From NCBI GenBank assembly GCA_022646745.1, contig CP060262.1:3000001-3032000 (forward strand): a DNA stretch of 32,000 bases, in the 5' to 3' direction. The position numbers and the translations under genes were made by a program. The DNA comes from Planctomycetales bacterium (GTDB lineage Bacteria; 4484-113; JAFGCY01). The notes under the pieces are model-generated. The model worked only from the letters and a program-made list of their open reading frames with translations, made no database searches and was not told where the DNA came from. Every line of letters starts with the position of its first letter. Position 1 is the stretch's first letter. Of this stretch, positions 6,621-31,226 are shown piece after piece.

Positions 6621-9600
6621 CTAGTTAGTGGCTGTGCCGATGTCGGTCAGAGTTGGCGCGGGCAGCCGTACCGTCACCCTGTAGGCGTCGCTCGGGATGC
6701 CGCGGCTGACGACGACGATGTCGCCATTGCCGGCACCGACCGGCACCGTGGCCTGAATCTCCGTGTCGCTCCAGCTGACGATGCCAGCAGGTACGCCGCC
6801 GACGAGTACGGTTGGGAACTCAACGGCGTCATCCGGGCCGAATACGGAACCGCTGACGGTGAACGGGTCGCCCTCGTACAGCACGACAGGTGTCACCGAA
6901 CTGATCTGCGGCGCCAGCCGGGCCACGATGTCATCTACGTAGTAGCCTGAGCGGTTCTGGTTGCCATCACTGTAGAAGAACCAGTTGAGCTTGATCTTCT
7001 CACCGAGCCAGCTGTCCAGCCGCACACCATCCGCGCGCCAGTCATCCTGGCCGTCACCGGTGAAGGCTGCCAGCTCACTCCAGGTATCGAGGTCAGTGGT
7101 GGCATAGACGATGCAGTAATCGTAGCCGGTCTCGATGTCGTAGTGGTGGACCATGCCGAGGCCGGGCTGCGAGACGTTGTCAACCAGGATCGTCGGGCTG
7201 ATCAGGCTGTCACTCTGGTTGTTGCCGTAGTTGTTCGTATTGCGGCCGAAGAACATCACCGTGTCACCGGAGAAGCCGAGCCCCCCGCGGGTATGCCAGT
7301 TGCCGGCACCGTTGTTGTTCGTGATCTGCCAGTAGGGCGCCACAGCCCCCTGCCAGTCCTCGCCCCAGGGCAGGGGCAGGCCGGGGTTGGAGGTCGTCCA
7401 GTTGATGTTGACAGTCGTTTCCATGCCGTCGACATCAGTCACCACTGCACTGAACGGGATGCCCTGGTCGAACACGATGTCACTATTCCATGTGGTGGTG
7501 TAGGGAGCGGCCTTGTCCAGCAGGATGCTGCTGCCATTGAGGATGAAGTTGACGCTGAACACGCCGTCATCATCCGTGGCGTCAACCGTAATCGTCTCAA
7601 CGCCGGTCAGTACGGAGCCGTCACCGGGGGTGATGCTTACAACCTGCGGCGGGCCACCCGGCTCCTTCAGTGCCACGTTGTCAACCCAGAAACCGCCGGT
7701 GCCGTTACCGATCCGGTTCAGCGATGAACTGTCCAGCCGGAAGCCGAGCCGGATGGTGTCCCCGACGTAGTCACTGAGGTCTTCATTGACAACATGCCAG
7801 CTGGTGTTGGTGCCTGTGTAGCTGGCGATCGTGTCCCAGTTGGCGCCGTCATCCGTTGACACCAGCAGCTTGCAGGTGTTCTCTCCGGTACTGACGCGGT
7901 AGCGCTGGAACCAGCGCACGATCGGTGCCACGCTGCCCGTCATGTCAATCGCCGGGCTGACCAGCAGGTCATGCTCATTGCGATCGTAACCGCTGCCCTC
8001 GGTGCCAACTCCGGCACTGGAGCTGCCGCTGGCGGCGGTGTTCTTCGATTCCCAGCGGTTGCTGCCGCCCATGTTGTAGGAGGCCCACCAGTCGATGCCG
8101 GTCTCGAAGTCGTCACCCCAGGGGAAGCTCTGCACGCTGTTGCTGAGGTTGACAGTCACGCTGTCTGTGTCGATCTCACCCGCGCTGTCAACAGCCACCA
8201 CCTTGAGGGCACGGCTGCCGTCGTAGACTCCCTGTGTGTGGAAGGTCTTCTGGTACGGGGCGGTGTCATCCGAGCCGAAGTAGGCGTCGTTCAGGTAGAA
8301 CTCGACGCGGTCGATCGTACGCCCGCCGTCCGGTGTGGCATCAGCCGTCACCGTGATCTCGCCGGTGATGTTGTCATTGTCGGCATGGCTGGTGATCGTC
8401 ACGCCGGGGGCGTTGACACTCTCCACGTAGATGTCGAGCGTCATCGTTGCGCCGGGGGCGGAGATGTCATCCAGCCGCACGAAGGTCTGGTTGCCGGGGT
8501 TCGGGTAATTGCTGCTGCGCGGGTTGGAGATGTTGCTGAACTGCCCGGTGTAGTTGCCGTCACTGTTGCCGTCGAACCACAGGTCGTTCGCATGCCCGCT
8601 GCTGCCATCGTCAATCGGGTCGCGCTGCTCGGCGGCATTCGTGTCATTCACACCGCGCGCGCTTTCCACGTCGACCCACTTGCGGTACTCATCGCGGTTG
8701 TTGCTCTGTGAGTCATCACAGTGCAGCACCAGCAGTCCCTCACCGGGCCGGGTGGCATCCGTCAGGATCTTCCGCATGTTGCAGACGAGGAAGTACTGGT
8801 CGCCCTGCTGCCCGTTGGTCCAGACCTTCAGCACTTCCGGGTTTGTCTGGTAGGCGTTTATCGGGTAGTCCTGCACATTGTCAGTGATCACCGTCGGCGT
8901 GACCCAGCCGAGCTGCACCTTGCACCAGGGGTCCGGGCTCGGTACCAGCTGGTTGTTGTCATAGTTGTCAGCCATCAGGCTCCAGCGCGCCACCCCGTTC
9001 GAGGAATAGTCCGTGTCATACAGGTCCGGCAGGCCGAGGATATGGCCGTATTCATGGCAGGTGATCGTCATCGACCAGCTGTCATTGTCGTGGTAGCCGG
9101 TCAGGAAGTAGCTGTCCACGATCACGCCATCCACATGCGCGTTGACACCACTCCAGCGGTGCGGGTGCAGGCCGCCGCCGAACCAGACCGGGCCGGCGTA
9201 GAACACGATCAGGGTGTCCACGTAGCCGTCCTTGTCCGTGTCGAACTGGCTGTAGTCGACGTCGTCGTCGCTGGCCATCACCATTTCATAGATCAGGTTG
9301 CGGGCATTGTTGGAGCTGGCGTTGTAGAAGTCCTTGGTGCCGGCAGCGCGGTACCAGCCGTCGCCACCCTCACCGCCGGTCGCCACAGCACCGTCAATCT
9401 CCAGCTTGCCGTAGGACACCTGCTGGTAGTAGTCATTGGCACTCGGGGGAGTGACGCCGGTGTTGAAGAACTTGTCGTCAAAGTAGTCCACGTCGTAGGT
9501 GTCGTAGTCGGCTGCCTGGTCACTGAAGTCGGCGCGTAGCACGCACCACTGGGCTGTGCCCTCGGAGGGGGCGATGCTCGTGGTCTTGGTGACGCGCGGC

Positions 9601-9923
9601 ACCTCATATCCGAGCTCGAGCAGGTCGAAGTGGTCGATCATGCCATCGAGGTTCAGGTCAAGGCTGCGGCCTTCCTCGCCCAGCGGGTCAGTGCCGCTGA
9701 CCTGGCGGCCGAGCTTCTGGCGGATATCGTTGCTTGTCGTGACACCGGGGCCGGGCAGGGGATCGGTCTCACCGAATTCCATCTCATTGAGCTGTGGCCA
9801 GATCTCCTGCCACTTCTCGAGGTTGCCGGGCTGGTCAAACCATTCCTTCGGTGGTTTGACGGTGGCAAATGCCTGGCTGGTGCAGGCGATCAAGATCAGG
9901 ATGGCGAGCAGGAACCTATTCAT
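6621..9923 (-). CDS. secreted multidomain M6-family (immune inhibitor A-like) zinc metalloprotease, copy A
   Basis: Start set at ATG 9923 (MNRFLLAILILIACTSQAFA signal peptide) rather than the ORF-track start at 10037. HEYGHILGLPDLYD zinc site at 9042-9056 and onward. Ca-loop DLNLDGMIDHFDLLELG at 9609-9659. Two Ig-like modules, two beta-sandwich modules with LVSPAID / LISPT motifs (MAM or choice-of-anchor-J-like), and a C-terminal IPT/TIG-like module. Confidence 0.85.
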   Translation of the reverse strand: MNRFLLAILILIACTSQAFATVKPPKEWFDQPGNLEKWQEIWPQLNEMEFGETDPLPGPGVTTSNDIRQKLGRQVSGTDPLGEEGRSLDLNLDGMIDHFDLLELGYEVPRVTKTTSIAPSEGTAQWCVLRADFSDQAADYDTYDVDYFDDKFFNTGVTPPSANDYYQQVSYGKLEIDGAVATGGEGGDGWYRAAGTKDFYNASSNNARNLIYEMVMASDDDVDYSQFDTDKDGYVDTLIVFYAGPVWFGGGLHPHRWSGVNAHVDGVIVDSYFLTGYHDNDSWSMTITCHEYGHILGLPDLYDTDYSSNGVARWSLMADNYDNNQLVPSPDPWCKVQLGWVTPTVITDNVQDYPINAYQTNPEVLKVWTNGQQGDQYFLVCNMRKILTDATRPGEGLLVLHCDDSQSNNRDEYRKWVDVESARGVNDTNAAEQRDPIDDGSSGHANDLWFDGNSDGNYTGQFSNISNPRSSNYPNPGNQTFVRLDDISAPGATMTLDIYVESVNAPGVTITSHADNDNITGEITVTADATPDGGRTIDRVEFYLNDAYFGSDDTAPYQKTFHTQGVYDGSRALKVVAVDSAGEIDTDSVTVNLSNSVQSFPWGDDFETGIDWWASYNMGGSNRWESKNTAASGSSSAGVGTEGSGYDRNEHDLLVSPAIDMTGSVAPIVRWFQRYRVSTGENTCKLLVSTDDGANWDTIASYTGTNTSWHVVNEDLSDYVGDTIRLGFRLDSSSLNRIGNGTGGFWVDNVALKEPGGPPQVVSITPGDGSVLTGVETITVDATDDDGVFSVNFILNGSSILLDKAAPYTTTWNSDIVFDQGIPFSAVVTDVDGMETTVNINWTTSNPGLPLPWGEDWQGAVAPYWQITNNNGAGNWHTRGGLGFSGDTVMFFGRNTNNYGNNQSDSLISPTILVDNVSQPGLGMVHHYDIETGYDYCIVYATTDLDTWSELAAFTGDGQDDWRADGVRLDSWLGEKIKLNWFFYSDGNQNRSGYYVDDIVARLAPQISSVTPVVLYEGDPFTVSGSVFGPDDAVEFPTVLVGGVPAGIVSWSDTEIQATVPVGAGNGDIVVVSRGIPSDAYRVTVRLPAPTLTDIGTATN

Positions 9924-10464
9924 TACCGGCCTCCCTGCCATCCACGAGGAAGTCGATTTCCTGCTTGTCGGAATCACGCAGCATGAAGCGGTCCGTCTGC
10001 GGCTCAAGGCGGAAGTCCTTGAGGTCAAATGCTCCAAGCGGGCGGACCTTCACCGCCATCAGCAGCGGGTCGCCGTTAACCCCGTCGCCATGCCAGCGGC
10101 GGGTATAGGCGAAGTCCAGCTTGCCGGGTTCGGCGATGTTGTCGATGAAGTAGCTGTTGTCCGGCTGGCCCAGCCCGCCACCGGCTTCCACCACGATCAC
10201 TTCGTACAGGGCGGAGTCATAGCGCAGGCTGCCGGCGATCTGGTACAGGTCACGCGCATGCTTGCCATGCAGCAGCACGCGGTAGCTGCCGTCGTCGTAG
10301 GATTCACTGCTCAGCTGCAGGTCAAGCGTCTGGCGCAGGGCATCGTCAGACCCCTGGACCTGCTGCGCCGGTGAGTGCTGGCCCTGCTGGCCACCACCAC
10401 CACCGCACGCGAAAAGGAATAACACTGCGGCAAACACCACAGCAACAGCCTTCAATGCACGCAT
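9916..10464 (-). CDS. small lipoprotein, cohesin-like pattern, copy A
   Basis: Start set at ATG 10464 (MRALKAVAVVFAAVLFLFAC, lipobox LFAC followed by GGGGG). The stop TAG at 9916-9918 overlaps the protease ATG at 9921-9923 within an 8-nt overlap. Paralogous to 13888-14433. Confidence 0.75.
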   Translation of the reverse strand: MRALKAVAVVFAAVLFLFACGGGGGQQGQHSPAQQVQGSDDALRQTLDLQLSSESYDDGSYRVLLHGKHARDLYQIAGSLRYDSALYEVIVVEAGGGLGQPDNSYFIDNIAEPGKLDFAYTRRWHGDGVNGDPLLMAVKVRPLGAFDLKDFRLEPQTDRFMLRDSDKQEIDFLVDGREAGNE

Positions 10465-10546: not shown

Positions 10547-13500
10547 CTACTTCTGGTCTAGTCCTGTGAGGTTCGGCGGCGGTAGTTTAATTGTAATTGA
10601 ATACCCGTCGGATGCAATGCCTCTTCGCAGAATCACCACACTTCCACTGGGTGAGGCAGCGGGCACCGTGCACACGATTTCCGTGTCATTCCAGCTCGTG
10701 ATGCTGGCCTGGATGCCGGAAACGGTCACCTTGCCGAAGTCCTCCGGCGGATTGCTGCCGAAGCCGGAGCCGCTGATGGTGATGCTGTCGCCGTTCACCA
10801 CGCTGGCAGGCGTGACGTTCGTGATCTGCGGAGCCGAGATCAGCTCCATCTCATCCACGTACCAGCCCTTCTCATCCACGCCGCCATCGGCCTCGAAGAA
10901 CCAGGCAAGCTTGACCTTCTGCCCGAGGTAGCTGTCCAGCCGTGCCCCGGCTTCGCGCCAGGCATTCTGGTTCAGCCCGGTGAACACATGCAGCTGGTTC
11001 CAGGTGTTGAGGTCGGTGGTCACGTAGCAGCGGCCGTAGTCATAGTTCAGCTCGATGTCATAGTGGTGCAGGTAGCCCAGGCCGGGGTCCACAATGCCCT
11101 GGAAGTCGAAGGTCGGCGAGATGAACCAGTCGTACTGGTTGTCGCCGTGGTCACCCACGTCCTTGCCGTAGAACATGCCGGGGCCGCTGTTGTAGCCGCC
11201 GCTGGCCAGGCGGTGCCAGTAGCCCTCACCGTTGACGTCAATCACGCGCCAGGCCGGTTCCGGGTCGCTGGCAAAGCCCTCACTCCATGGAATCGGCAGG
11301 CCGGGGTTGCTGGTGGTCCAGTTGACCGTCTGGCTGGTGGCCTGCAGGTCGCCGTCATACACAACTGCCGTGAAGGTGGCAGCCCCGTCGAACAGCCAGT
11401 CACTGTTCCAGTCCGTCGTGAACGGTGCGCTGAAGTCCTGGAAGATCAGGTCGGTGCCGTTGATGTAGAAGTCCACCTGCAGCACGGCCTCGTCATCCGT
11501 CGCTTCCACGGTGATGGTTTCGAGGCCGGTCAGGATCGCTCCATCCGGCGGAGTGATGCTGATGATGTTCGGCGCCGCGCTCAGTTCCTTCAGCTCCAGC
11601 TCGTCCACCCACCAGCCGGCGGTGCCGCCCTGCTTGTTCAGGCCACTGCCGTCGAACTTCAGGACCAGCCGGATCTCCTCACCGACATAGGCCAGCAGGT
11701 CAACGGCACCGGGATGCCAGCTCAGGGAGCTGCCGGTGTAGCTCACCAGCGGGGTGAGGGTCACGCCCTCATCCTTCGTAACGAACACCTTGCAGGTGTT
11801 CTCGCCGGCGCTGACATTGTGGCGGTGCTGGTAGCGCGCCATCGGGTGCGTGGTGCCGGTCAGGTCGATCTTCGGGCTGACCAGCGCATCATGCTCGTTG
11901 TAGTCATAGCCGCTGCTTTCGCTGCCGATGCCGGCGCTCTTGCTGCCTGAGGATCCCGTGTTCTTGCTTTCCCAGTAGCGGTCGCCATTGGTGTTGTAGC
12001 TGGCCCAGGAGCCGATGCCGGATTCAAAGCCTTCCGACAACGGGAATGTCTCAGCGGTGTTGGAGACATCCAGTGACTTGCCATCCGTGTCTATCTCGCC
12101 TTGGTCATCGGTTGCCACTGCAGTCAGCAACCTTGCATTGCTGCCGGCGGCATTGCCGTCATATACGCCGCGCGTGTCAATTGCCATTTCATAGGGGTCA
12201 GTGCTGTCAGCGCCGTACCAGGCTCCGTTGAGGTAGAAGTCCACGTGGTCGATCGTGCGTCCAGCTGTTGCTGTGGCCGTTGCTGTGACGTTGATGGTGC
12301 CGCTCACGGCATCGCCGTCATTGTGGCTGGTGATGGCAACGGTTGGGGCAGTGGCGGTCTCCACCACGATGTCCAGCGTCATGGTGTCACCGGGCGCTGA
12401 GATGTTGCTCAGGCTGATGAAGGTGTTTGCACCCGGGTTCGGATAGTTCCGGCTGAACGGGTTGGAAGTGTCATCGAAGATGCCGGTGTAGTCCCCGTCT
12501 GTGTTGCCGTCAAAGAACAGGTCGTTGCCATGCCCGAGGTTACCATTGTCCAGCGGGTCCTTCGGGTTTGTGAGGTTCGGGTCCTCGTAGCCGCGCGCAC
12601 TCTCGACATCAACATGCTTGCGGTCCTCATTGGCATTGTCACCGTTGCCGCCGGCCCGTGTCTCATCGATGTGCAGCACCAGCAGGCCTTCGCCAGGCCG
12701 GTTGGCATCGGTGCCGAGCTTGCGGTAGTTCGCCATCAGGAAGTACTGGTCCTCGATCTGGCCATTGGTCCAGACCCGCAGCACTTCCGGGCTGTTCTGG
12801 TAATAGGGCAGGTTATATCCCACCTGGTTCTCGGTGATGTTCTTGGCCGTAACCCATCCGAGCTGGCACTTGCACCAGGGGTCTAGCGAAGGAGGCTTCT
12901 GGCCGTTGTCATAGTTGTAGGCCATCAGCGACCAGTAGCCCATTCCGGCGCTGCCGCCGTTCACGTCATAGAGGTCGGGCAGGCCGAGGATGTGGCCGTA
13001 CTCATGGGCCGCGATCACCATCGTGTGGCTGTCGTTGCCGGTGTTGTAGCCCGAGATGAAGTAGCTGTCGACGATCACGCCGTCCACATGGATATTCAGC
13101 CCGCTCGAGCGGTGCGGCCACAGGCCGCCCTGGAACACCGTGTTCGGGTAGTAGCAGAGCACGGTGTCAACGTAGCCGTCACCGTCCACGTCGAAGTCGC
13201 TGAAGTCCACGAAGGGGTCGGCGTTCAGCACCGCCTCCTTCACCAGCCAGCGGCCACCGTTGTCAATGTACCACTGCTTGGTGTGCTCGCCCTTGTACCA
13301 GCCGTCGCCGCCGGTGCCGGAGGTATCCACCGTGCCGTTGATCGCCAGCTTGCCGTAGCTGGTTTCCTGGTAGTAGTCGTTGATGCTCGGCTTGGGTGCC
13401 GTGCCCAGCGAGAAGAAGCGCTCGTTGAAGTAGTCGACGTCGTAGGTGCCGTAGTTGGCATTCTGGTCCTGGAAGTCCGCGCGCAGCACGTACCACTGGT

Positions 13501-13891
13501 TCGTGCCCTCCGGCGGGGCAATGCTCGCGCCCTTGTTGTCAGGGGCGACCTCATAGCCCAGTTCCAGCAGGTCGAAGTGGTCGATCACGCCGTCCAGGTT
13601 CAGGTCGAAGCGCTGGCTGGCGGCGCTGCCGCTTTCCAGTCCCTCTTCATCGGCAAAGCGATCACGTGTGTAGCCGAGGTACTTGCGGATGCCGTCGTAC
13701 TGCTCAAGTGCACTGCCCGACATCGGCGGCTGGGGGTTGAATTCCCAGTCGTTCAGGATCGGGTACATCTCCTCCCAGAGCTTGTCCTTCTCCGGGCCGT
13801 CGAACCACTCCTGCGGAGGACGCACGGTCGCATTGGCAACTGCCCACAGCAGGATCACGAACAGGCTGGTCAGGAAGGCGATGCGGATCAT
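10547..13891 (-). CDS. secreted multidomain M6-family (immune inhibitor A-like) zinc metalloprotease, copy B
   Basis: Signal peptide MIRIAFLTSLFVILLWAVANA. HEYGHILGLPDLYD at 12992-13006 and onward. Ca-loop DLNLDGVIDHFDLLELG at 13556-13606. Same domain order as copy A and colinear along the full length. Confidence 0.88.
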   Translation of the reverse strand: MIRIAFLTSLFVILLWAVANATVRPPQEWFDGPEKDKLWEEMYPILNDWEFNPQPPMSGSALEQYDGIRKYLGYTRDRFADEEGLESGSAASQRFDLNLDGVIDHFDLLELGYEVAPDNKGASIAPPEGTNQWYVLRADFQDQNANYGTYDVDYFNERFFSLGTAPKPSINDYYQETSYGKLAINGTVDTSGTGGDGWYKGEHTKQWYIDNGGRWLVKEAVLNADPFVDFSDFDVDGDGYVDTVLCYYPNTVFQGGLWPHRSSGLNIHVDGVIVDSYFISGYNTGNDSHTMVIAAHEYGHILGLPDLYDVNGGSAGMGYWSLMAYNYDNGQKPPSLDPWCKCQLGWVTAKNITENQVGYNLPYYQNSPEVLRVWTNGQIEDQYFLMANYRKLGTDANRPGEGLLVLHIDETRAGGNGDNANEDRKHVDVESARGYEDPNLTNPKDPLDNGNLGHGNDLFFDGNTDGDYTGIFDDTSNPFSRNYPNPGANTFISLSNISAPGDTMTLDIVVETATAPTVAITSHNDGDAVSGTINVTATATATAGRTIDHVDFYLNGAWYGADSTDPYEMAIDTRGVYDGNAAGSNARLLTAVATDDQGEIDTDGKSLDVSNTAETFPLSEGFESGIGSWASYNTNGDRYWESKNTGSSGSKSAGIGSESSGYDYNEHDALVSPKIDLTGTTHPMARYQHRHNVSAGENTCKVFVTKDEGVTLTPLVSYTGSSLSWHPGAVDLLAYVGEEIRLVLKFDGSGLNKQGGTAGWWVDELELKELSAAPNIISITPPDGAILTGLETITVEATDDEAVLQVDFYINGTDLIFQDFSAPFTTDWNSDWLFDGAATFTAVVYDGDLQATSQTVNWTTSNPGLPIPWSEGFASDPEPAWRVIDVNGEGYWHRLASGGYNSGPGMFYGKDVGDHGDNQYDWFISPTFDFQGIVDPGLGYLHHYDIELNYDYGRCYVTTDLNTWNQLHVFTGLNQNAWREAGARLDSYLGQKVKLAWFFEADGGVDEKGWYVDEMELISAPQITNVTPASVVNGDSITISGSGFGSNPPEDFGKVTVSGIQASITSWNDTEIVCTVPAASPSGSVVILRRGIASDGYSITIKLPPPNLTGLDQK

Positions 13892-14433
13892 GATCCGGCC
13901 CTCCTGAGGCTGGGCTCGAGTTCGTGCTTCTGTGAATCGCGCACGCGCAGGCTGTCCGGCTCCAGCGGCAGGCTGAAGTCGCCGACGGAGAAGTCACCGA
14001 GTGCACGCACCCGCAGTCGCAGCAGGTTCAGGTCACCGGAGTTGATGCGGCCAAACCAGCGGCTGGTGTAGCCAAAGTCCAGCTTGCCCTCGGCGGCGCT
14101 GGAGTTGACGAAGTATGCTTCCTCAGGGCCGCCCAGTCCGCCACCGGCCTCCACCGAGGTGATCTCATACATCGTGGGATCGAACAGCACGCTGCCAGCC
14201 AGCTGGTAGATGTCCGTGGCATCCTCGGCACTGAGCATCAGTGACCATTCGTCACCCTGGATCGGGGTCGCTTCCAGCAGCAGGCTGACATTGCGATCAT
14301 CCAGCGAATCGGGGGAGGGCGCATTGTTGCCAGGTGAGAGATCGGCGTTGCCGCTGCGATCAGCACCGCCTCCGCCGCAGCCGAGCAGTGTCAGCAGCGT
14401 CAGGCAGGTAAGCAAGGATTTCAGTTGCCGCAT
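13888..14433 (-). CDS. small lipoprotein, cohesin-like pattern, copy B
   Basis: MRQLKSLLTCLTLLTLLGC lipobox followed by GGGG. The stop TGA overlaps the protease ATG (ATGA at 13888-13891). Shares the core IYQLAGS..(Y/F)D...YE(V/I)..VEAGGGLG.P...YF......GKLDF.YT.RW with copy A. Confidence 0.8.
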   Translation of the reverse strand: MRQLKSLLTCLTLLTLLGCGGGGADRSGNADLSPGNNAPSPDSLDDRNVSLLLEATPIQGDEWSLMLSAEDATDIYQLAGSVLFDPTMYEITSVEAGGGLGGPEEAYFVNSSAAEGKLDFGYTSRWFGRINSGDLNLLRLRVRALGDFSVGDFSLPLEPDSLRVRDSQKHELEPSLRRAGS

Positions 14434-14461: not shown

Positions 14462-14491
14462 ATTATAGGGTTTTTCCGGGTTCGCTGCTAA
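14462..14491 (-). promoter_or_regulatory. candidate sigma70-type promoter for cassette B (TTAGCA-N18-TATAAT)
   Basis: On the minus strand, TATAAT lies at 14462-14467 and TTAGCA at 14486-14491, the latter overlapping the stop of the SRPBCC gene. The -10 lies about 30 nt upstream of the lipoprotein ATG. Confidence 0.35.
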
Positions 14492-14955
14492 CCCGCGCTG
14501 CCCGCCTGCGCTGCGGCAATCGCGTTCAGGCCCTGCAGCAGCTCATCGCAGTTCTGGTCCATCACCTGGTTTGCGATGTTATTGACCATCGGGCCTAGCA
14601 TCGGGATGCCGAGCTCGAAGTCCACATTGAGGTGCACCAGTGTGCCGCCGTCCTGCGCCTCGAACTTCCAGTCGCCGTTGTAGATCTTCATGTCGCCCTT
14701 CACTAGCTCGAAGCGGCAGCTCAGGTCAGCTTCGTTCCAGCTGTCGCGCTCGGTCCAGGTGACCTTCTTGCTCATCGGGCCGACCTTGAGCGTAGCCGTC
14801 CATTCCGTGATCAGGCGGCCATTGCCCTCGTCGGACACCACGCGTGCACTGTCCAGGTTGGGCAGCACCTCGGGGAACTTCTCGACCTGGCGGGCAGCGT
14901 TGAACACTGCCTGCGGCGGCAGCGGAATGTGCATCGTCTTGCGGATTTCAAACAT
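14488..14955 (-). CDS. SRPBCC (START/polyketide cyclase/RatA-COQ10-like) ligand-binding domain protein
   Basis: About 155 aa. N-terminal pattern I.lP.....VF.....VE.FPE.LP......V and later W.....F.L..G.m..Y.G.W.F, typical of the RatA/COQ10-like family. Confidence 0.7.
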   Translation of the reverse strand: MFEIRKTMHIPLPPQAVFNAARQVEKFPEVLPNLDSARVVSDEGNGRLITEWTATLKVGPMSKKVTWTERDSWNEADLSCRFELVKGDMKIYNGDWKFEAQDGGTLVHLNVDFELGIPMLGPMVNNIANQVMDQNCDELLQGLNAIAAAQAGSAG

Positions 14956-14961
14956 GGCGGG

Positions 14962-16233
14962 TCATCCCTGGCTCTGGCTGAACTGTTCGAGGATCATACG
15001 GGTGCTTTCACAGGCCTTGTGCAGCCTTGTGATCACGACATCTATCACTTCGGGGGGCATGTGCAGCGGCGGTTCGATGCGCAGCACCTCCGGGTTGTTG
15101 AGGGCGAAGGCGATGAACACCTTCTCCTCGATCACGCTGGCGATCATCAGCTCGCAGATGTCCTTGCTGACGCAGTCGATGCCGATCATCATGCCCTGGC
15201 CGCGCACTTCCGCCAGTACATCGGGGAAGTCCGCCTGCAGCTTCTTCAATGCTTCGAGAAAGTAAGCGCCGTTCTTCTCCGCCTGCTCGGCGTAGCCACC
15301 CTGCTCCAGCAGGTCGAGTGCGGCACAGGCCGCGGCGCAGGCCAGCTCATTGCCACCGAAGGTGCTGGTGTGCACGAGCGGGTTCTCCTGGAACAGCTCC
15401 CAGACGTACTCGGTGCCGATGGTGGCGCCGATCGGCATCACGCCGCCGCCGAGCGACTTGGCCAGCACCAGGATGTCCGGCACGACGCCTTCTCGCTCGC
15501 AGGCGAAGTTGCGCCCGGTGCGCCCCATGCCGGTCTGCACCTCATCAAGGATCAACAGCACTCCATGCTTCTTCGTGATCTCACGTACGCCCGTCAGGTA
15601 GCCCGCGGGAGGCACACGGATGCCGCCTTCACCCTGCACGGGCTCAAGCATCACTGCCGCCGTCGTCTCGGAGATCGCGGCATCAAGGGCCTCGAGGTCG
15701 CCGAAGGGCACCACGCCGAAGTTGGCAATCAGCGGGCGAAACGGTGACTGGAAGTGTTCGCGGTGGGTGCTGGACAGGCTGCCCAGTGTCTTGCCGTGGT
15801 AGGCATTCTTGGCACTGATTATGTCCGGCTTGCCGGTGCGCAGGCGCGCCAGCTTGATGGCGGCCTCGACGGCTTCCGTGCCGCTGTTGCTGATGAAGCT
15901 GTACTTCAGCTCCCCCGGCGTGATCTCCGCCAGGCGGTGAGCCAGGCGGGCCTGTACCGGGTTCAGCAGCAGCTTGCTGGACATCGGCATGCGGTCCAGC
16001 TGCTGCTTGACGGCGCTGACCACGGCCGGGTTGCGGTGGCCGAAGTTGTAGCTGCCGTAGGCGGCAACGCAGTCGATGAATTCGCGGCCGTCACCGGTGC
16101 GCACATGCCAGCCTTCGGCCTCCAGCTCGGCGCTGTCCAGGCCCATGAAGCCCAGCAGGCTGAGCAGGCCGGAGTTGACATGCTCCATGTACCACTGCTT
16201 GGTGGTGGCGTCGTCGGGTAGGGGGTGTGTCAT
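14962..16233 (-). CDS. class-III PLP-dependent aminotransferase (putrescine/acetylornithine aminotransferase-like)
   Basis: Motifs GSYNFGHRNPAV, SNSGTEAVEAAIKLAR, LILDEVQTGMGRTG, PDILVLAKSLGGG (PLP lysine) and TSTFGGNELACAAA. Confidence 0.9.
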   Translation of the reverse strand: MTHPLPDDATTKQWYMEHVNSGLLSLLGFMGLDSAELEAEGWHVRTGDGREFIDCVAAYGSYNFGHRNPAVVSAVKQQLDRMPMSSKLLLNPVQARLAHRLAEITPGELKYSFISNSGTEAVEAAIKLARLRTGKPDIISAKNAYHGKTLGSLSSTHREHFQSPFRPLIANFGVVPFGDLEALDAAISETTAAVMLEPVQGEGGIRVPPAGYLTGVREITKKHGVLLILDEVQTGMGRTGRNFACEREGVVPDILVLAKSLGGGVMPIGATIGTEYVWELFQENPLVHTSTFGGNELACAAACAALDLLEQGGYAEQAEKNGAYFLEALKKLQADFPDVLAEVRGQGMMIGIDCVSKDICELMIASVIEEKVFIAFALNNPEVLRIEPPLHMPPEVIDVVITRLHKACESTRMILEQFSQSQG

Positions 16234-27378: not shown

Positions 27379-27515
27379 CACCTTGGCGCGGGAAGGGGTT
27401 TCCCGGGCATGCCGGACCTGGCTGATTGCACACAGCGAGGGATGGCCAGAGGTCTTTACCGGTTGGATTCTGATTGGTTGAAGGAAGGGCTACCTTGAAG
27501 CAAAGGACTACTGCC

Positions 27516-30500
27516 ATGACACGCAATGTCGTCGCGCATATCCCGAACCACCGCGCGCTCGCATATTCCCGACTCCTTATCATCTGCGCCAGCATGGCAG
27601 TCATGCTGCTTCTTGCCGCCTGCGGCGGTGGTACGCAGAAGTCGACCACCGGCAGCGGCAGTCCGCGCAAGAGCAGCCACACGGCAGCCACGGCGGTGGA
27701 GAGCACCCCGCTGGCCAGCGCGGGATCCGGCGGCAGCTTCGTCAAGCTGGAGGCTGCTGAAACTGGCATCGACTTCGTCAATGACGTGACCCAGCGTGAG
27801 CTGATCGTCTCGCAGGTCGCCACCCACAGCGGTGTGGCCAGTGGAGACATCGACGGCGATGGTGACCTGGACCTGTTCTTTGCAGGCGTGAACAGCAAGA
27901 ACAGGCTGTACCGCAATGACGGGGCAATGAAGTTCACTGACATCACGGCGGATGCCGGCGCTGACATCAGCGGCGGGGACAGGCTCGGCGCCTGTGCCGC
28001 CTTCGCCGACCTGAACGGCGATGGCAAGCTCGACCTGTACGTCGGCAACTCCGATGCCGGGAACGAGCTGTTCTTCGGTGACGGCACGGGCAAGTTCACT
28101 GAAGCCCCCGCCGGCCACGGAGCGGATGACGCGCGTGCCGCTACCTCAACCGCCCTGTTCGATGCAGACGAGGACGGCGACCTCGACATCTTCATCTGCA
28201 ACTACGCAATGAATACGACGGCGCCGAGTGTGCTGCAGTCACTGATCCCGGAGGATGGCCAGAAGGCCGTGATCCCCTCGCACCTGCAGGAGGAACTGTA
28301 TGTCGATGAGAAGGGCTGGCCGCGCCATCGCCCTGACCGCGACACCTTCCTGCTCAATGACGGCAGCGGCAGGTTCACTGATGTGACCGAGCAGCGCGGG
28401 CTGGACTTCGTCAGCTTCAGCTTCCAGGCCCAGGCAGTTGACTTTGACAACGACGGTGACGATGACCTGTATGTCACCAGTGACTTCGAGACCCCGGACC
28501 GGGCCTTCCTGAATGATGGCAAGGGCAACTTCTCCCTGGTCACGGCGGAGATGTTCCGCAAGACCGCGCTGTACGGCATGGGTGCCGACAGCGGCGACGT
28601 CAACAATGACGGCCTGCCGGACCTGTTCGTGGCCGACATGAGCGCCCGCGGCAAGCAGCGCTCGAAGCGCCAGAGCGGCGACATGTATGAGTGGCGCTGG
28701 GAGTTCATGAATCAGGACCCGCAGCCGCAGATGCGCAACATGCTGTTCGTCAACACCGGCGGCGGCTGGATGAGCGAACTGGCCAGCCTGGCCGGGGTGA
28801 AGAGCTCGGACTGGACCTGGGCCGCGCGCTTCGCCGACATGGACTGCGACGGCTTTGAGGACCTCTACACCGCTACCGGCTTCACCCGTGACGCGATGGA
28901 CGTGGACACCACGAACCAGATCCAGTCCTTCGTTGCCAGCGGTGAGGATGCCGGTGCGATCCAGGACTTCATCGCAGGCCAGCCGGTCTACCGCGTGGAG
29001 GACTACACCTTCCGCAACAACGGCCAGCTCGGCTTCAAGACCCCGGATGACAACTGGGGCCTCAACATTGAAACCTACAGTGCGGGAGCCAGCCTGTCAG
29101 ATTATGACGGCGATGGCGACCCGGACCTGATCATCAACTACACCTTTGATCCGGCCGGCGTGTTCCGCAATGACATCTCGACAAGCAAGCGCCTGACGAT
29201 CGACCTGGTGCAGGAAGGCAGCAACCCGCGCGCCGTCGGTGCCCGCGTCTGGGCGCATGTCGGCGACCAGCTGATGAGCCGTGACGTGATCATCGGCCGC
29301 GGCTTCGCCTCCGGTGAATCGACCCGCCTGCACTTCGGGCTGGGTTCGGCAACTAAGATCGACAAGCTGGAGATCCGCTGGCCTGACAACAAGCTGCAGG
29401 TGGTGGATGGGCTGGATGCCGGCAACCACTACACGATCCACCGTAGTTCCGACCTGACGGACTGGAAGCCGGCGGAGGTTGATGCCCTGTTCGAGACGAG
29501 TGAGATTGCCTGGGAGCAGCAGGAAATCAATACTGCGGCACTTGAATATGACAAGGAGCCGCTGCTGCCCTGGCAGATGAGCACGCTTGGCACCGGCATG
29601 GCGCTGGCTGACACGGATGGCGACGGCCTCGAGGAACTGATCCTGGGCGGTGCGGCCGGCCAGGACGGTGTCTGGCTGGAGCGCGACGCCAGCGGCAAGT
29701 GGACCGATGTGCAGAACAACCTGAAGGACCTGGTCGGCACGGAGGCTGAGGTGACCGGCATCCGTGTGCTTGACCTTGACGGCGATGGCCGCCGCGACAT
29801 CCTGCTGGCAACCGGCGGGATCGAGGGCAATGAGCTGGATGGCAGCTTCCGCAACTACCTGTTGATGAACCTCGAGACCGGCCTGCGCCCGAAGCGCCTG
29901 CCGACTGACAACACGAGCGTCGGCCAGGTTGCCGCCGCGGACTTTGACCGGGATGGCGACGTGGACCTGCTGCTTTGCGGCCACGTGCGCCCCTACCAGT
30001 TCGGCCGCACTGACCGCAACTACCTGCTTGTCAACGACGGTACCGGCAACTTCACGGATTCCCCCGAGAAGGCCCCGGCGCTGAGTAACCGCAGCAACAT
30101 CACTGATGCAGTGTTCGAGGACATGGACGGTGACGGCTGGCAGGACCTCGTGATCGCCCGCTTCTGGGGCCCGGTGGAGCTCTGGCTCAACGTCGATGGT
30201 GAGCTGGTGTATGCCGAGGACCTGACGGAGCGCGGATGGTGGCGCGGGCTGGCAACCGGTGACTTCAACAGTGACGGTGTGCCTGACGTGATCGCCTGCA
30301 ACTTCGGCGAGAACACGAAGTACCACCCGAGCGCTGAGAAGCCGCAGGTCACCTACTGCTTCGACTTCGATGGCAACGGCAGCCGCGACGTGGTGGAGGC
30401 GACCTACAACTCCGACGGCACCCAGCTGCCGGGCCGTGGCCGCTCCTGCAGCGGATACGCGATCCGCAGCATCCCGCGCCGCTTCCCGACCTGGACGCAG

Positions 30501-31226
30501 TTCTCCGAGGCCTCGCTGCGAGATGTCTACGGCGATGACCTTGACCAGTCCGAGGCCTTCTACTGCGACACGGTTGACAGCGTGGTCCTGCTCAGTGGCA
30601 ACGGCGACTGGACACCCACGCCGCTGCCCGGCATGGCGCAGTGGACCGTGGCCTTCAGCGCGGCTGTGGCCGACTACAACAATGACGGCAAGCTCGACGC
30701 CTTCATCGCCGGCAACCTGGAGCAGGCCCAGCCTGAGGCCGGGCAGTGGGACAGCGGTTACGGGGCGATGCTGCTTGGCAACGGCGATGGCACATTCGAA
30801 AGCATCGGCGTGCCCGAATGCGGTGTGCGGGTCTACAACGACCAGCGCGGCAGCGCATCCGCCGACCTCGACCGGGATGGCAATGCAGACCTGCTGATTG
30901 CGATCAGCAACGGCCACCCGCGGGTGGCGATGAACCGCGGTACATACAGCAAGGGCAGCGGCCTGAACGTGCAGCTGATGGGTAGCATCGGCAATCCCGA
31001 TGCGCTTGGCGCACGCGTGCTGCTCACACTTGACGATGGAACAGTCCTTTCGCGCACTGTCGGTGACAGTGCCAGCTACCTGGCAAGCAGCACGGCGCCG
31101 GTGCACTTCGGCATCCCCGAGGGACGCACGGCCGCCAACCTGACAGTCAACTGGGCGGACGGCTCCAGCCAGGACGTGGCCGTACCCGCAGGTGAAACCA
31201 AGCTGGAGGTGATGCAGGGCATCTGA
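27516..31226 (+). CDS. FG-GAP/VCBS-repeat lipoprotein, CRTAC1 / ASPIC-UnbV family, double module
   Basis: Start set at ATG 27516 (…RLLIICASMAVMLLLAAC lipobox followed by GGG). Many D.DGDGD.D(L/I)(F/Y) FG-GAP calcium loops. Two UnbV/ASPIC-type segments: RAVGARVWAHVGDQLMSRDVIIGRGFASGESTRLHFGLG...LEIRWPD, and at the C-terminus DALGARVLLTLDDGTVLSRTVGDSASYLASSTAPVHFGIP...LTVNWADG. Confidence 0.85.
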   Translation: MTRNVVAHIPNHRALAYSRLLIICASMAVMLLLAACGGGTQKSTTGSGSPRKSSHTAATAVESTPLASAGSGGSFVKLEAAETGIDFVNDVTQRELIVSQVATHSGVASGDIDGDGDLDLFFAGVNSKNRLYRNDGAMKFTDITADAGADISGGDRLGACAAFADLNGDGKLDLYVGNSDAGNELFFGDGTGKFTEAPAGHGADDARAATSTALFDADEDGDLDIFICNYAMNTTAPSVLQSLIPEDGQKAVIPSHLQEELYVDEKGWPRHRPDRDTFLLNDGSGRFTDVTEQRGLDFVSFSFQAQAVDFDNDGDDDLYVTSDFETPDRAFLNDGKGNFSLVTAEMFRKTALYGMGADSGDVNNDGLPDLFVADMSARGKQRSKRQSGDMYEWRWEFMNQDPQPQMRNMLFVNTGGGWMSELASLAGVKSSDWTWAARFADMDCDGFEDLYTATGFTRDAMDVDTTNQIQSFVASGEDAGAIQDFIAGQPVYRVEDYTFRNNGQLGFKTPDDNWGLNIETYSAGASLSDYDGDGDPDLIINYTFDPAGVFRNDISTSKRLTIDLVQEGSNPRAVGARVWAHVGDQLMSRDVIIGRGFASGESTRLHFGLGSATKIDKLEIRWPDNKLQVVDGLDAGNHYTIHRSSDLTDWKPAEVDALFETSEIAWEQQEINTAALEYDKEPLLPWQMSTLGTGMALADTDGDGLEELILGGAAGQDGVWLERDASGKWTDVQNNLKDLVGTEAEVTGIRVLDLDGDGRRDILLATGGIEGNELDGSFRNYLLMNLETGLRPKRLPTDNTSVGQVAAADFDRDGDVDLLLCGHVRPYQFGRTDRNYLLVNDGTGNFTDSPEKAPALSNRSNITDAVFEDMDGDGWQDLVIARFWGPVELWLNVDGELVYAEDLTERGWWRGLATGDFNSDGVPDVIACNFGENTKYHPSAEKPQVTYCFDFDGNGSRDVVEATYNSDGTQLPGRGRSCSGYAIRSIPRRFPTWTQFSEASLRDVYGDDLDQSEAFYCDTVDSVVLLSGNGDWTPTPLPGMAQWTVAFSAAVADYNNDGKLDAFIAGNLEQAQPEAGQWDSGYGAMLLGNGDGTFESIGVPECGVRVYNDQRGSASADLDRDGNADLLIAISNGHPRVAMNRGTYSKGSGLNVQLMGSIGNPDALGARVLLTLDDGTVLSRTVGDSASYLASSTAPVHFGIPEGRTAANLTVNWADGSSQDVAVPAGETKLEVMQGI

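Follow-up and report, generated by a model that had tools for sequence, protein, structure and literature searches.

Cohesin-bearing lipoproteins encoded in overlapping genes with M6 metalloproteases: a candidate membrane tether in a Planctomycetales bacterium

Why would a bacterium encode a small lipoprotein and a large exported protease in overlapping genes? The question is raised by a 32,000-nucleotide stretch of DNA from a Planctomycetales bacterium (GenBank assembly GCA_022646745.1, contig CP060262.1, positions 3,000,001 to 3,032,000), which we refer to as the window. Its minus strand carries two successive two-gene units, each consisting of a lipoprotein gene and then a metalloprotease gene. 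The gene for LP2, a lipoprotein of 181 residues (13888..14433; window positions are on the minus strand unless stated otherwise), is followed by that for Prot2, an M6/InhA-like metalloprotease of 1114 residues (10547..13891). After a gap of 82 nucleotides, LP1, a 182-residue paralogue of LP2 (9916..10464), is followed by Prot1, an M6/InhA-like metalloprotease of 1100 residues (6621..9923). The LP2 stop codon and the Prot2 ATG share 4 nucleotides (ATGA), the end of LP1 and the Prot1 ATG share 8 (ATGAATAG), and the sequence AGGTGGG directly precedes the ATG of LP1. Judging from the overlaps, the lipoprotein and protease genes of each unit are translationally coupled. An earlier note on this DNA had read the lipoproteins as single cohesin modules that would tether a protease carrying a dockerin-like loop. 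In our analysis the cohesin half of this idea is solid, and the docking half is a plausible hypothesis, specific enough to be tested.

Both lipoproteins begin with a signal peptide that runs into a lipobox-like cysteine and a stretch of glycines: FLFAC20-GGGGG in LP1 (signal peptide and lipobox FLFA-C20, 10405..10464) and TLLGC19-GGGG in LP2 (TLLG-C19, 14377..14433). The cysteine follows the hydrophobic h-region in each protein (LFA-C20 and LLG-C19) and is kept throughout the full-length members of the family in an alignment of 14 sequences that includes LP1. The lipobox was judged by sequence inspection, and the phenylalanine at position -2 of LP1 is atypical. We therefore regard LP1 and LP2 as predicted lipoproteins, with lipidation and the membrane that bears the anchor likewise read from sequence. 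The organism is probably diderm, as its genome encodes three secretins and a homologue of BamA. In the AlphaFold2 model of LP2, residues 20–40 have a predicted local distance difference test score (pLDDT) below 50, and a disordered Gly/polar linker extends to about residue 45; the lipobox followed by a poly-Gly/polar linker that the earlier note described is thus present in both proteins. Many of the genome's lipoproteins have a Cys-Gly-Gly-Gly motif following the lipobox.

LP1 and LP2 are 39% identical across 141 residues (E 4e-35) and belong to a small family, with 12 matches among 5.8 billion proteins, all unnamed or annotated as "hypothetical". The cohesin-like motifs quoted for them earlier are found letter for letter, as LYQIAGSLRYDSALYEVIVVEAGGGLG and GKLDFAYTRRWHGDGVNGDPLLMAVKVRPLG in LP1 and as IYQLAGSVLFDPTMYEITSVEAGGGLG and GKLDFGYTSRWFGRINSGDLNLLRLRVRALG in LP2. 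The sole Pfam match of both proteins is Cohesin (PF00963), with E-values of 0.028 for LP1 and 0.0079 for LP2 and scores (15.1 and 16.8 bits) under the gathering score of 24.1 bits. Since that score is an operational threshold and not a structural feature, we count the family as a divergent cohesin branch. Searched against PDB sequences, the profile of the 14-sequence alignment returned a single match, the cohesin 4UMS (E 0.089), with which the VEAG element of the lipoproteins, itself ordinary for a cohesin, aligns. Scanned exhaustively against 1.8 billion representatives, the same profile matched 91 proteins, with E-values down to 1.5e-9. Many of these are about 160–215 residues long, the size of the lipoproteins, and the rest include long proteins with as many as eight matching stretches. 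Of 10 such long proteins that were tested, nine exceed the Pfam Cohesin cut-off, and some also match Dockerin_1; P0047, for example, reaches 156 bits over 5 stretches. HHalign comparison of the lipoprotein domain with an alignment of Pfam-positive cohesins gave a probability of 99.3% (E 9e-21).

The predicted structure points the same way. The AlphaFold2 model of LP2 (pLDDT 82.1) contains nine strands over residues 48–180, and the model, Foldseek and HHalign together place the cohesin domain at residues about 46–181 (13891..14298). When this model was compared with the PDB using Foldseek, the top 50 matches were cohesins without exception (best E 4.7e-8; target-normalised TM score up to 0.71). 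They span type I and type II cohesins and the non-cellulosomal modules 2xdh and 2jh2, from A. fulgidus and C. perfringens. The earlier note had named lipocalin or inhibitor folds as the outcome that would speak against a cohesin; neither appeared among the top 50, and the cohesin assignment therefore stands. Profile homology and predicted fold together strongly support one cohesin module in each of LP1 and LP2, a single beta-sandwich on a lipid anchor, as first suggested.

Strands 8-3-6-5 form the classical dockerin-binding face of cohesins. Across 55 sequences of the lipoprotein family, these strands are more conserved than strands 9-1-2-7-4 (2.58 versus 1.88 bits, Mann-Whitney p 0.0013), with the strands of LP2 numbered by their DSSP order in the model and canonical numbering assumed. 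Residues Q77, T123 and R165 are conserved in 91–100% of the same 55 sequences.

By profile and motif, the partner genes encode zinc metalloproteases of the M6 (immune inhibitor A-like) type. Their TIGR03296 scores are 153.9 bits for Prot1 and 148.9 bits for Prot2, against a cut-off of 110.8, and both proteins contain the sequence HEYGHILGLPD, which fits HExxHxxGxxD (Prot2, 12974-13006; Prot1, 9024-9056). Each starts with a Sec signal peptide, with cleavage between AxA and TV, and carries two Big_7 domains, InhA-like MAM or choice-of-anchor-J domains and a C-terminal TIG domain, the Prot2 assignment resting on TIGR03296 and Pfam domains. A phmmer search of the PDB with the whole of Prot2 found no M6 structure and returned TIG/Ig-like pieces alone. 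A second EF-hand-like loop, FDVDGDGYVDTV, lies in the catalytic domain of Prot2 (residues 227–242, window about 13166-13213); this stretch gives sub-threshold Pfam EF-hand matches, and its Prot1 equivalent scores far weaker. It is probably a structural calcium site.

That loop would show structural use of calcium in this enzyme, and it bears on the idea that the calcium loop at the protease N-terminus, described below, serves to stabilise the protease while the cohesin-fold domain binds a non-protein ligand, such as a glycan or peptidoglycan, or is merely structural. Beta-sandwich modules are versatile enough for such a role. We consider it very improbable, as the homology is specific to cohesins and not to carbohydrate-binding modules, conservation is strongest in the strands placed in the dockerin-binding sheet, and the lipoprotein and protease genes are strictly paired.

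The mature N-terminus of Prot1 and Prot2 is formed by a conserved module of about 95 residues. It consists of the motif TVRPPxEWF, a long helix (LWxxMWPxLNxxEF), a helix leading to I-R-x-x-L-G, a variable linker and the sequence DLNLDGxIDxFDLLELGY, which is separated from the catalytic domain by some 20 flexible residues. In Prot2 the module covers mature residues 22–123 (13523..13828; AlphaFold2 and HHalign), and its calcium loop-helix, or F-hand, is DLNLDGVIDHFDLLELGY (residues 96–113, 13553..13606); in Prot1 the module lies at 9576..9863 (alignment A2; matched at E 0.009 by a dockerin hidden Markov model (HMM) trained on 25 dockerins from the same genome) and the F-hand is DLNLDGMIDHFDLLELGY (residues 89–106, 9606..9659). 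The AlphaFold2 model of the Prot2 module (pLDDT 80.6) has helices at 12–30, 40–49, 55–62 and 84–92 in module numbering, and a beta-bridge joins residue 54 to residue 81 of the calcium loop.

Several comparisons relate this module to dockerins. All four M6 proteases of this genome (Prot1 to Prot4) and 31/31 close orthologues contain the Ca2+ loop consensus of dockerins, D-x-[DN]-x-[DN]-G-x-[IV]-[DN]-x-x-D, with an amphipathic helix after it, and in sequence the F-hand is close to repeat 2 of a canonical dockerin from the same genome, MDLNSDGVIDELDVLEIG. Positions 20–52 of Pfam Dockerin_1 (PF00404) align to Prot2 residues 70–111. At genome scale, the genome-built HMM matched 17 of 33 N-terminal modules at E < 0.01; main-clade modules had E-values between 3e-4 and 0.2, and that of Prot3 an E-value of 3.4. 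The printed HMM alignments extend from the last part of helix 1 across the linker and repeat 2, and HHalign of the module against the dockerins of this genome spans the whole dockerin (P 5.9e-5).

How widely is the loop distributed among M6 proteases? Among the 120 homologues listed, it is present in all 31 with at least 44% identity, and a pattern scan found an N-terminal copy in none of the 89 more distant ones, which rules out the F-hand as a generic M6 feature. The HExxH motif lies at median residue 296 in the loop-bearing clade versus 252 in the distant homologues; being about 45 residues nearer the N-terminus in the latter, it indicates that the dockerin-like piece is a clade-specific insertion. 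Of the 89 distant homologues listed, 41 end in a sorting domain of the type IX secretion system (T9SS) and 7 in a canonical dockerin. These C-terminal dockerins score above the Pfam threshold, and one protease combines an internal cohesin with a T9SS tail. An envelope-retention device is thus a recurring accessory of M6 proteases. Among the distant proteases that bear a dockerin or cohesin are the metagenome proteins P0164, P0143, P0162, P0179 and P0208, and M6 proteases seem to be frequent cohesin-dockerin clients in uncultured bacteria.

The loop-bearing clade is also the clade with a lipoprotein partner. The genome, a single contig of 4.11 Mb, encodes exactly four M6 proteases, and each of the four genes has a small cohesin lipoprotein gene directly upstream. 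Outside the window, LP3 (genome 2620942-2621487) precedes Prot3 (2621484-2624237) with a 4-nucleotide overlap, and LP4 (3921660-3922292) precedes Prot4 (protease end 3925680), all on the plus strand. Prot3 and Prot4 carry divergent versions of the calcium loop (VNFDSNEVIDERDILGMGF and DLNHDGMVDERDLLVLGH), and with their divergent cohesins these two pairs are natural specificity variants of those in the window. The overlapping arrangement is seen in metagenome relatives as well. In sampled neighbourhoods, a lipoprotein-family gene lay upstream of 3/3 loop-bearing proteases (E 4e-14 to 5e-23) and of 0/3 loop-less ones; next to a distant lipoprotein relative, the following gene begins ...ATVRPPEEWF. 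Among 22 genomes of the phylum, 19 encode the lipoprotein family, and each of the 16 strong matches to the N-terminal module of the protease directly follows a lipoprotein match on the same strand.

Such strict pairing calls to mind protease inhibitors. In Tannerella forsythia the open reading frame (ORF) of a small lipoprotein adjoins or overlaps the beginning of a peptidase gene in a bicistronic arrangement, and each peptidase has its own specific inhibitor, a potempin (PMC9890683). By analogy, the cohesin scaffold of LP1 and LP2 could act as a potempin-like inhibitor or zymogen chaperone that binds the catalytic domain or prosegment and holds the M6 enzyme at the membrane in an inactive state, so that the cell's own envelope is spared; on this view the calcium loop would form part of a prodomain and would not be the binding site. 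The gene organisation is that of the potempin/KLIKK-peptidase operons (PMC9890683), every M6 paralogue has its own 1:1, translationally coupled partner (with the overlaps of 4 and 8 nucleotides in the window), and the glycine-rich loop EAGGGLGxP, invariant in the main lipoprotein clade, could be a contact loop. This loop, however, is not kept in LP3, LP4 or the L042-L044 partners, yet the pairing persists, and the VEAG within it is the ordinary cohesin motif that aligns with 4UMS. Potempins, 98–132 residues long, are OB-fold proteins or barrels of eight strands and act by plugging the active site (PMC9890683), whereas Foldseek assigns LP2 to the cohesin fold, and cohesins are known as dockerin binders. 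The restriction of the F-hand to the clade of proteases with a lipoprotein partner is also left unexplained. On balance we judge an inhibitor or chaperone role to be a minority possibility.

To place the four pairs in context, the cohesin and dockerin repertoire of the genome was counted with HMMs built from its own sequences, the cohesin count coming from an iterated profile. About 97 ORFs carry a predicted dockerin; in 90 it lies near the N-terminus (residues 95–285) and in only 7 at the C-terminus, and a lipobox is present in 79. By these counts, a docking module at the N-terminus, though unusual elsewhere, is the rule in this genome. A further 35 ORFs carry a cohesin-like domain, with sub-threshold Pfam support. 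In 27 of them, a lipobox and cohesin are followed by a dockerin, mostly after a gap of about 35 residues (range 24–58), and then by variable domains (PKD, fn3, TIG); the eight others have a cohesin and no dockerin, and the four lipoproteins paired with M6 proteases are the shortest among them (181–210 residues). Examples of the repertoire outside the window are G000:C1:842762-848148, 3155140-3157515 and 2709266-2712727. Given the fused order in 27 proteins, the M6 cassette looks like a copy of it split over two overlapping genes. The inhibitor explanation offers no account of these fusions.

With dockerin ORFs outnumbering cohesin ORFs by 97 to 35, LP1 and LP2 might instead be general anchors that bind the canonical two-loop dockerins of other envelope proteins, their linkage to the proteases reflecting co-regulation or processing of clients and not direct docking. 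The closest relative of the lipoproteins outside the cassettes (E 2.6e-11) is indeed a cohesin beside a canonical dockerin, in a protein of 1153 residues. A shared anchor, however, would need no copy per protease; here every M6 gene has its own cohesin gene directly upstream, and the overlapping arrangement is conserved across the phylum. Most canonical dockerins of this genome, moreover, already reside in lipoproteins, 27 of them with a cohesin of their own. We regard the general anchor as improbable, somewhat more so than the inhibitor.

The explanation we lean towards, by a modest degree, is that the lipidated cohesin holds the co-translated protease on the membrane through a calcium-loaded half-dockerin at the protease N-terminus. 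The first gene would give rise to a lipoprotein with a Sec signal peptide, a lipobox cysteine, a flexible Gly/polar linker of about 25–35 residues and one cohesin. The overlapping second gene would produce a Sec-exported M6 (InhA-like) zinc metalloprotease with its N-terminal helical module of about 95 residues, the end of which would be a degenerate dockerin made of a first-helix remnant (I-R-x-x-L-G), a linker and a single intact Ca2+ loop-helix. The 8-3-6-5 sheet of the cohesin would bind this module in a calcium-dependent manner, both the contact and its calcium dependence being predictions, so that the cognate protease would be kept on the membrane at 1:1 stoichiometry. The tether could be permanent, or lost once the N-terminal module is removed on activation. 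Translational coupling and the pairing (4/4 in this genome, 16/16 in related genomes) support this proposal, as do the confinement of the loop to the protease clade that has a lipoprotein partner, the greater conservation seen in the presumed dockerin-binding sheet, and the fused lipobox-cohesin-dockerin proteins of the same genome.

A number of observations weigh against a tether, most of them concerning the docking module. It has one intact calcium loop (DLNLDGxIDxFD) and not the two of a dockerin; at the position of the first repeat is a helix remnant, DGIRKYLG. A single loop is compatible with function in the group-2 dockerins of R. flavefaciens, which have one loop and yet bind cohesin (PMC12270676). 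Pfam Dockerin_1 scores 11 bits on Prot2 (cut-off 22.9, E 0.52), the dockerin E-values of the modules at genome scale are 0.045 and 0.28, and the HHalign probability against dockerins is just 37.5%. A search of the PDB with the module profile returned a mixture of EF-hand proteins and dockerins, all similarly marginal (E 0.001–0.3), and thus does not tell the two apart; a Foldseek comparison of the Prot2 module model with PDB structures yielded nothing significant (best E 1.6), so the fold is callable neither dockerin nor EF-hand. The dockerin-like loop that the earlier note ascribed to the protease was therefore borne out as an intact calcium loop-helix and not as a canonical dockerin, and the module is only partly dockerin: by sequence and model, we describe it as dockerin-like with one calcium loop, outside the dockerin family proper. 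Its marginal status favours an inhibitor, and a protease encoded with its inhibitor, as in the potempin systems (PMC9890683), would be just as likely to show co-occurrence and translational coupling. The canonical numbering assumed for the LP2 strands bears on the conservation of the binding face, and the approximately 97 canonical dockerins of this genome could be the real ligands of the cohesins.

Tethering and inhibition are compatible, as latency could also result from a cohesin seated on the N-terminal prosegment region. In a more elaborate version of the tether, the cassette would be the split, two-gene form of a widespread envelope system, and the half-dockerin in the prosegment a conditional, regulated dock for the zymogen. 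Held at first by the lipoprotein cohesin, the zymogen would be freed or repositioned by a drop in calcium or by cleavage of the N-terminal module on activation, so that the pair would not serve as a permanent scaffold. We offer this version as speculation that is probably wrong in at least some part.

Other features of the window lie around the two units. Just 5' of LP2 is a promoter-like site, TTAGCA-18-TATAAT (14462..14491), identified by its match to a sigma-70-like consensus; one such site was found versus 2.0 expected in shuffled sequences, and it may be the promoter of the cassette. A terminator-like hairpin at 10423-10444 falls within the signal-peptide coding region of LP1 and is probably a chance match (3 terminator-like sites found versus 5.4 expected in shuffles). 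Further 5' of LP2 are genes for an SRPBCC/polyketide-cyclase-like protein (14488-14955) and a class-III aminotransferase (14962-16233), an order that is also kept 5' of the cassette in distant relatives (loci L001/L002). On the plus strand, an ORF of 1250 residues (27474-31226) has a lipobox and then a glycine run, as in LP1 and LP2; the lipoprotein profile matches its leader weakly (27588-27686), and a very weak dockerin-like match lies at 29853-29966 (E 0.59).

What makes the locus useful is its small size: one cohesin and one putative half-dockerin, encoded in overlapping genes, with an enzyme client that is readily assayed. The two paralogous pairs in the window and the two elsewhere in the genome permit a comparison of specificity. 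If the binding is real, lipoprotein cohesins would join T9SS tails and C-terminal dockerins as a protease retention device in diderms, the module would represent a second natural class of single-loop dockerins, located at the N-terminus, and the locus would open up a cohesin-dockerin network of uncommon size, with some 97 dockerin ORFs in 4.1 Mb, in a candidate phylum that is uncultured. Should the lipoprotein inhibit the protease instead, it would be, to our knowledge, the first cohesin-fold protease inhibitor, although no literature search aimed at one was made.

Cohesins and dockerins outside cellulosomes, and peptidases bearing dockerins, are already known. In the literature on cohesins and dockerins together with lipoproteins or (metallo)proteases, we found no conserved operon that pairs a single-cohesin lipoprotein with an M6 protease carrying an N-terminal, dockerin-like module with a single loop. 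Prot1 and Prot2 resemble other InhA/M6 peptidases in their TIGR03296 match, HExxHxxGxxD motif and InhA-like MAM domains. They differ from them in the clade-specific N-terminal insertion of about 45 residues with its calcium loop-helix, in having neither a T9SS tail nor a C-terminal dockerin, and in their obligatory upstream cohesin lipoprotein.

The modules of the C. perfringens toxin complex and the cohesin of A. fulgidus likewise function outside cellulose degradation, and their structures (2jh2 and 2xdh) match the LP2 model; in contrast to the pairs described here, their dockerins have the canonical two loops, and they are not encoded as lipoprotein/protease pairs in an operon. The naturally truncated group-2 dockerins of R. 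flavefaciens share the single Ca2+-coordinating loop with the protease module (PMC12270676). They are short C-terminal modules of cellulosomal proteins, two units of which bind per cohesin (PMC12270676), whereas the loop here is a putative binder within the N-terminal helical module (95 residues) of a protease. Parallels in architecture are the single-cohesin surface anchors of cellulosome producers, OlpA, OlpC and SdbA of C. thermocellum and ScaE of R. flavefaciens, in which one envelope-anchored cohesin holds a dockerin-bearing enzyme; the OlpC and OlpA cohesin complexes (4dh2 and 3ul4) are among the Foldseek matches of LP2. Compared with these proteins, the predicted anchor here is a lipid-modified cysteine in a diderm and not an S-layer homology (SLH) domain or sortase, and the proposed client is a protease, encoded 1:1 in the same overlapping operon and carrying its one-loop docking module at the N-terminus.

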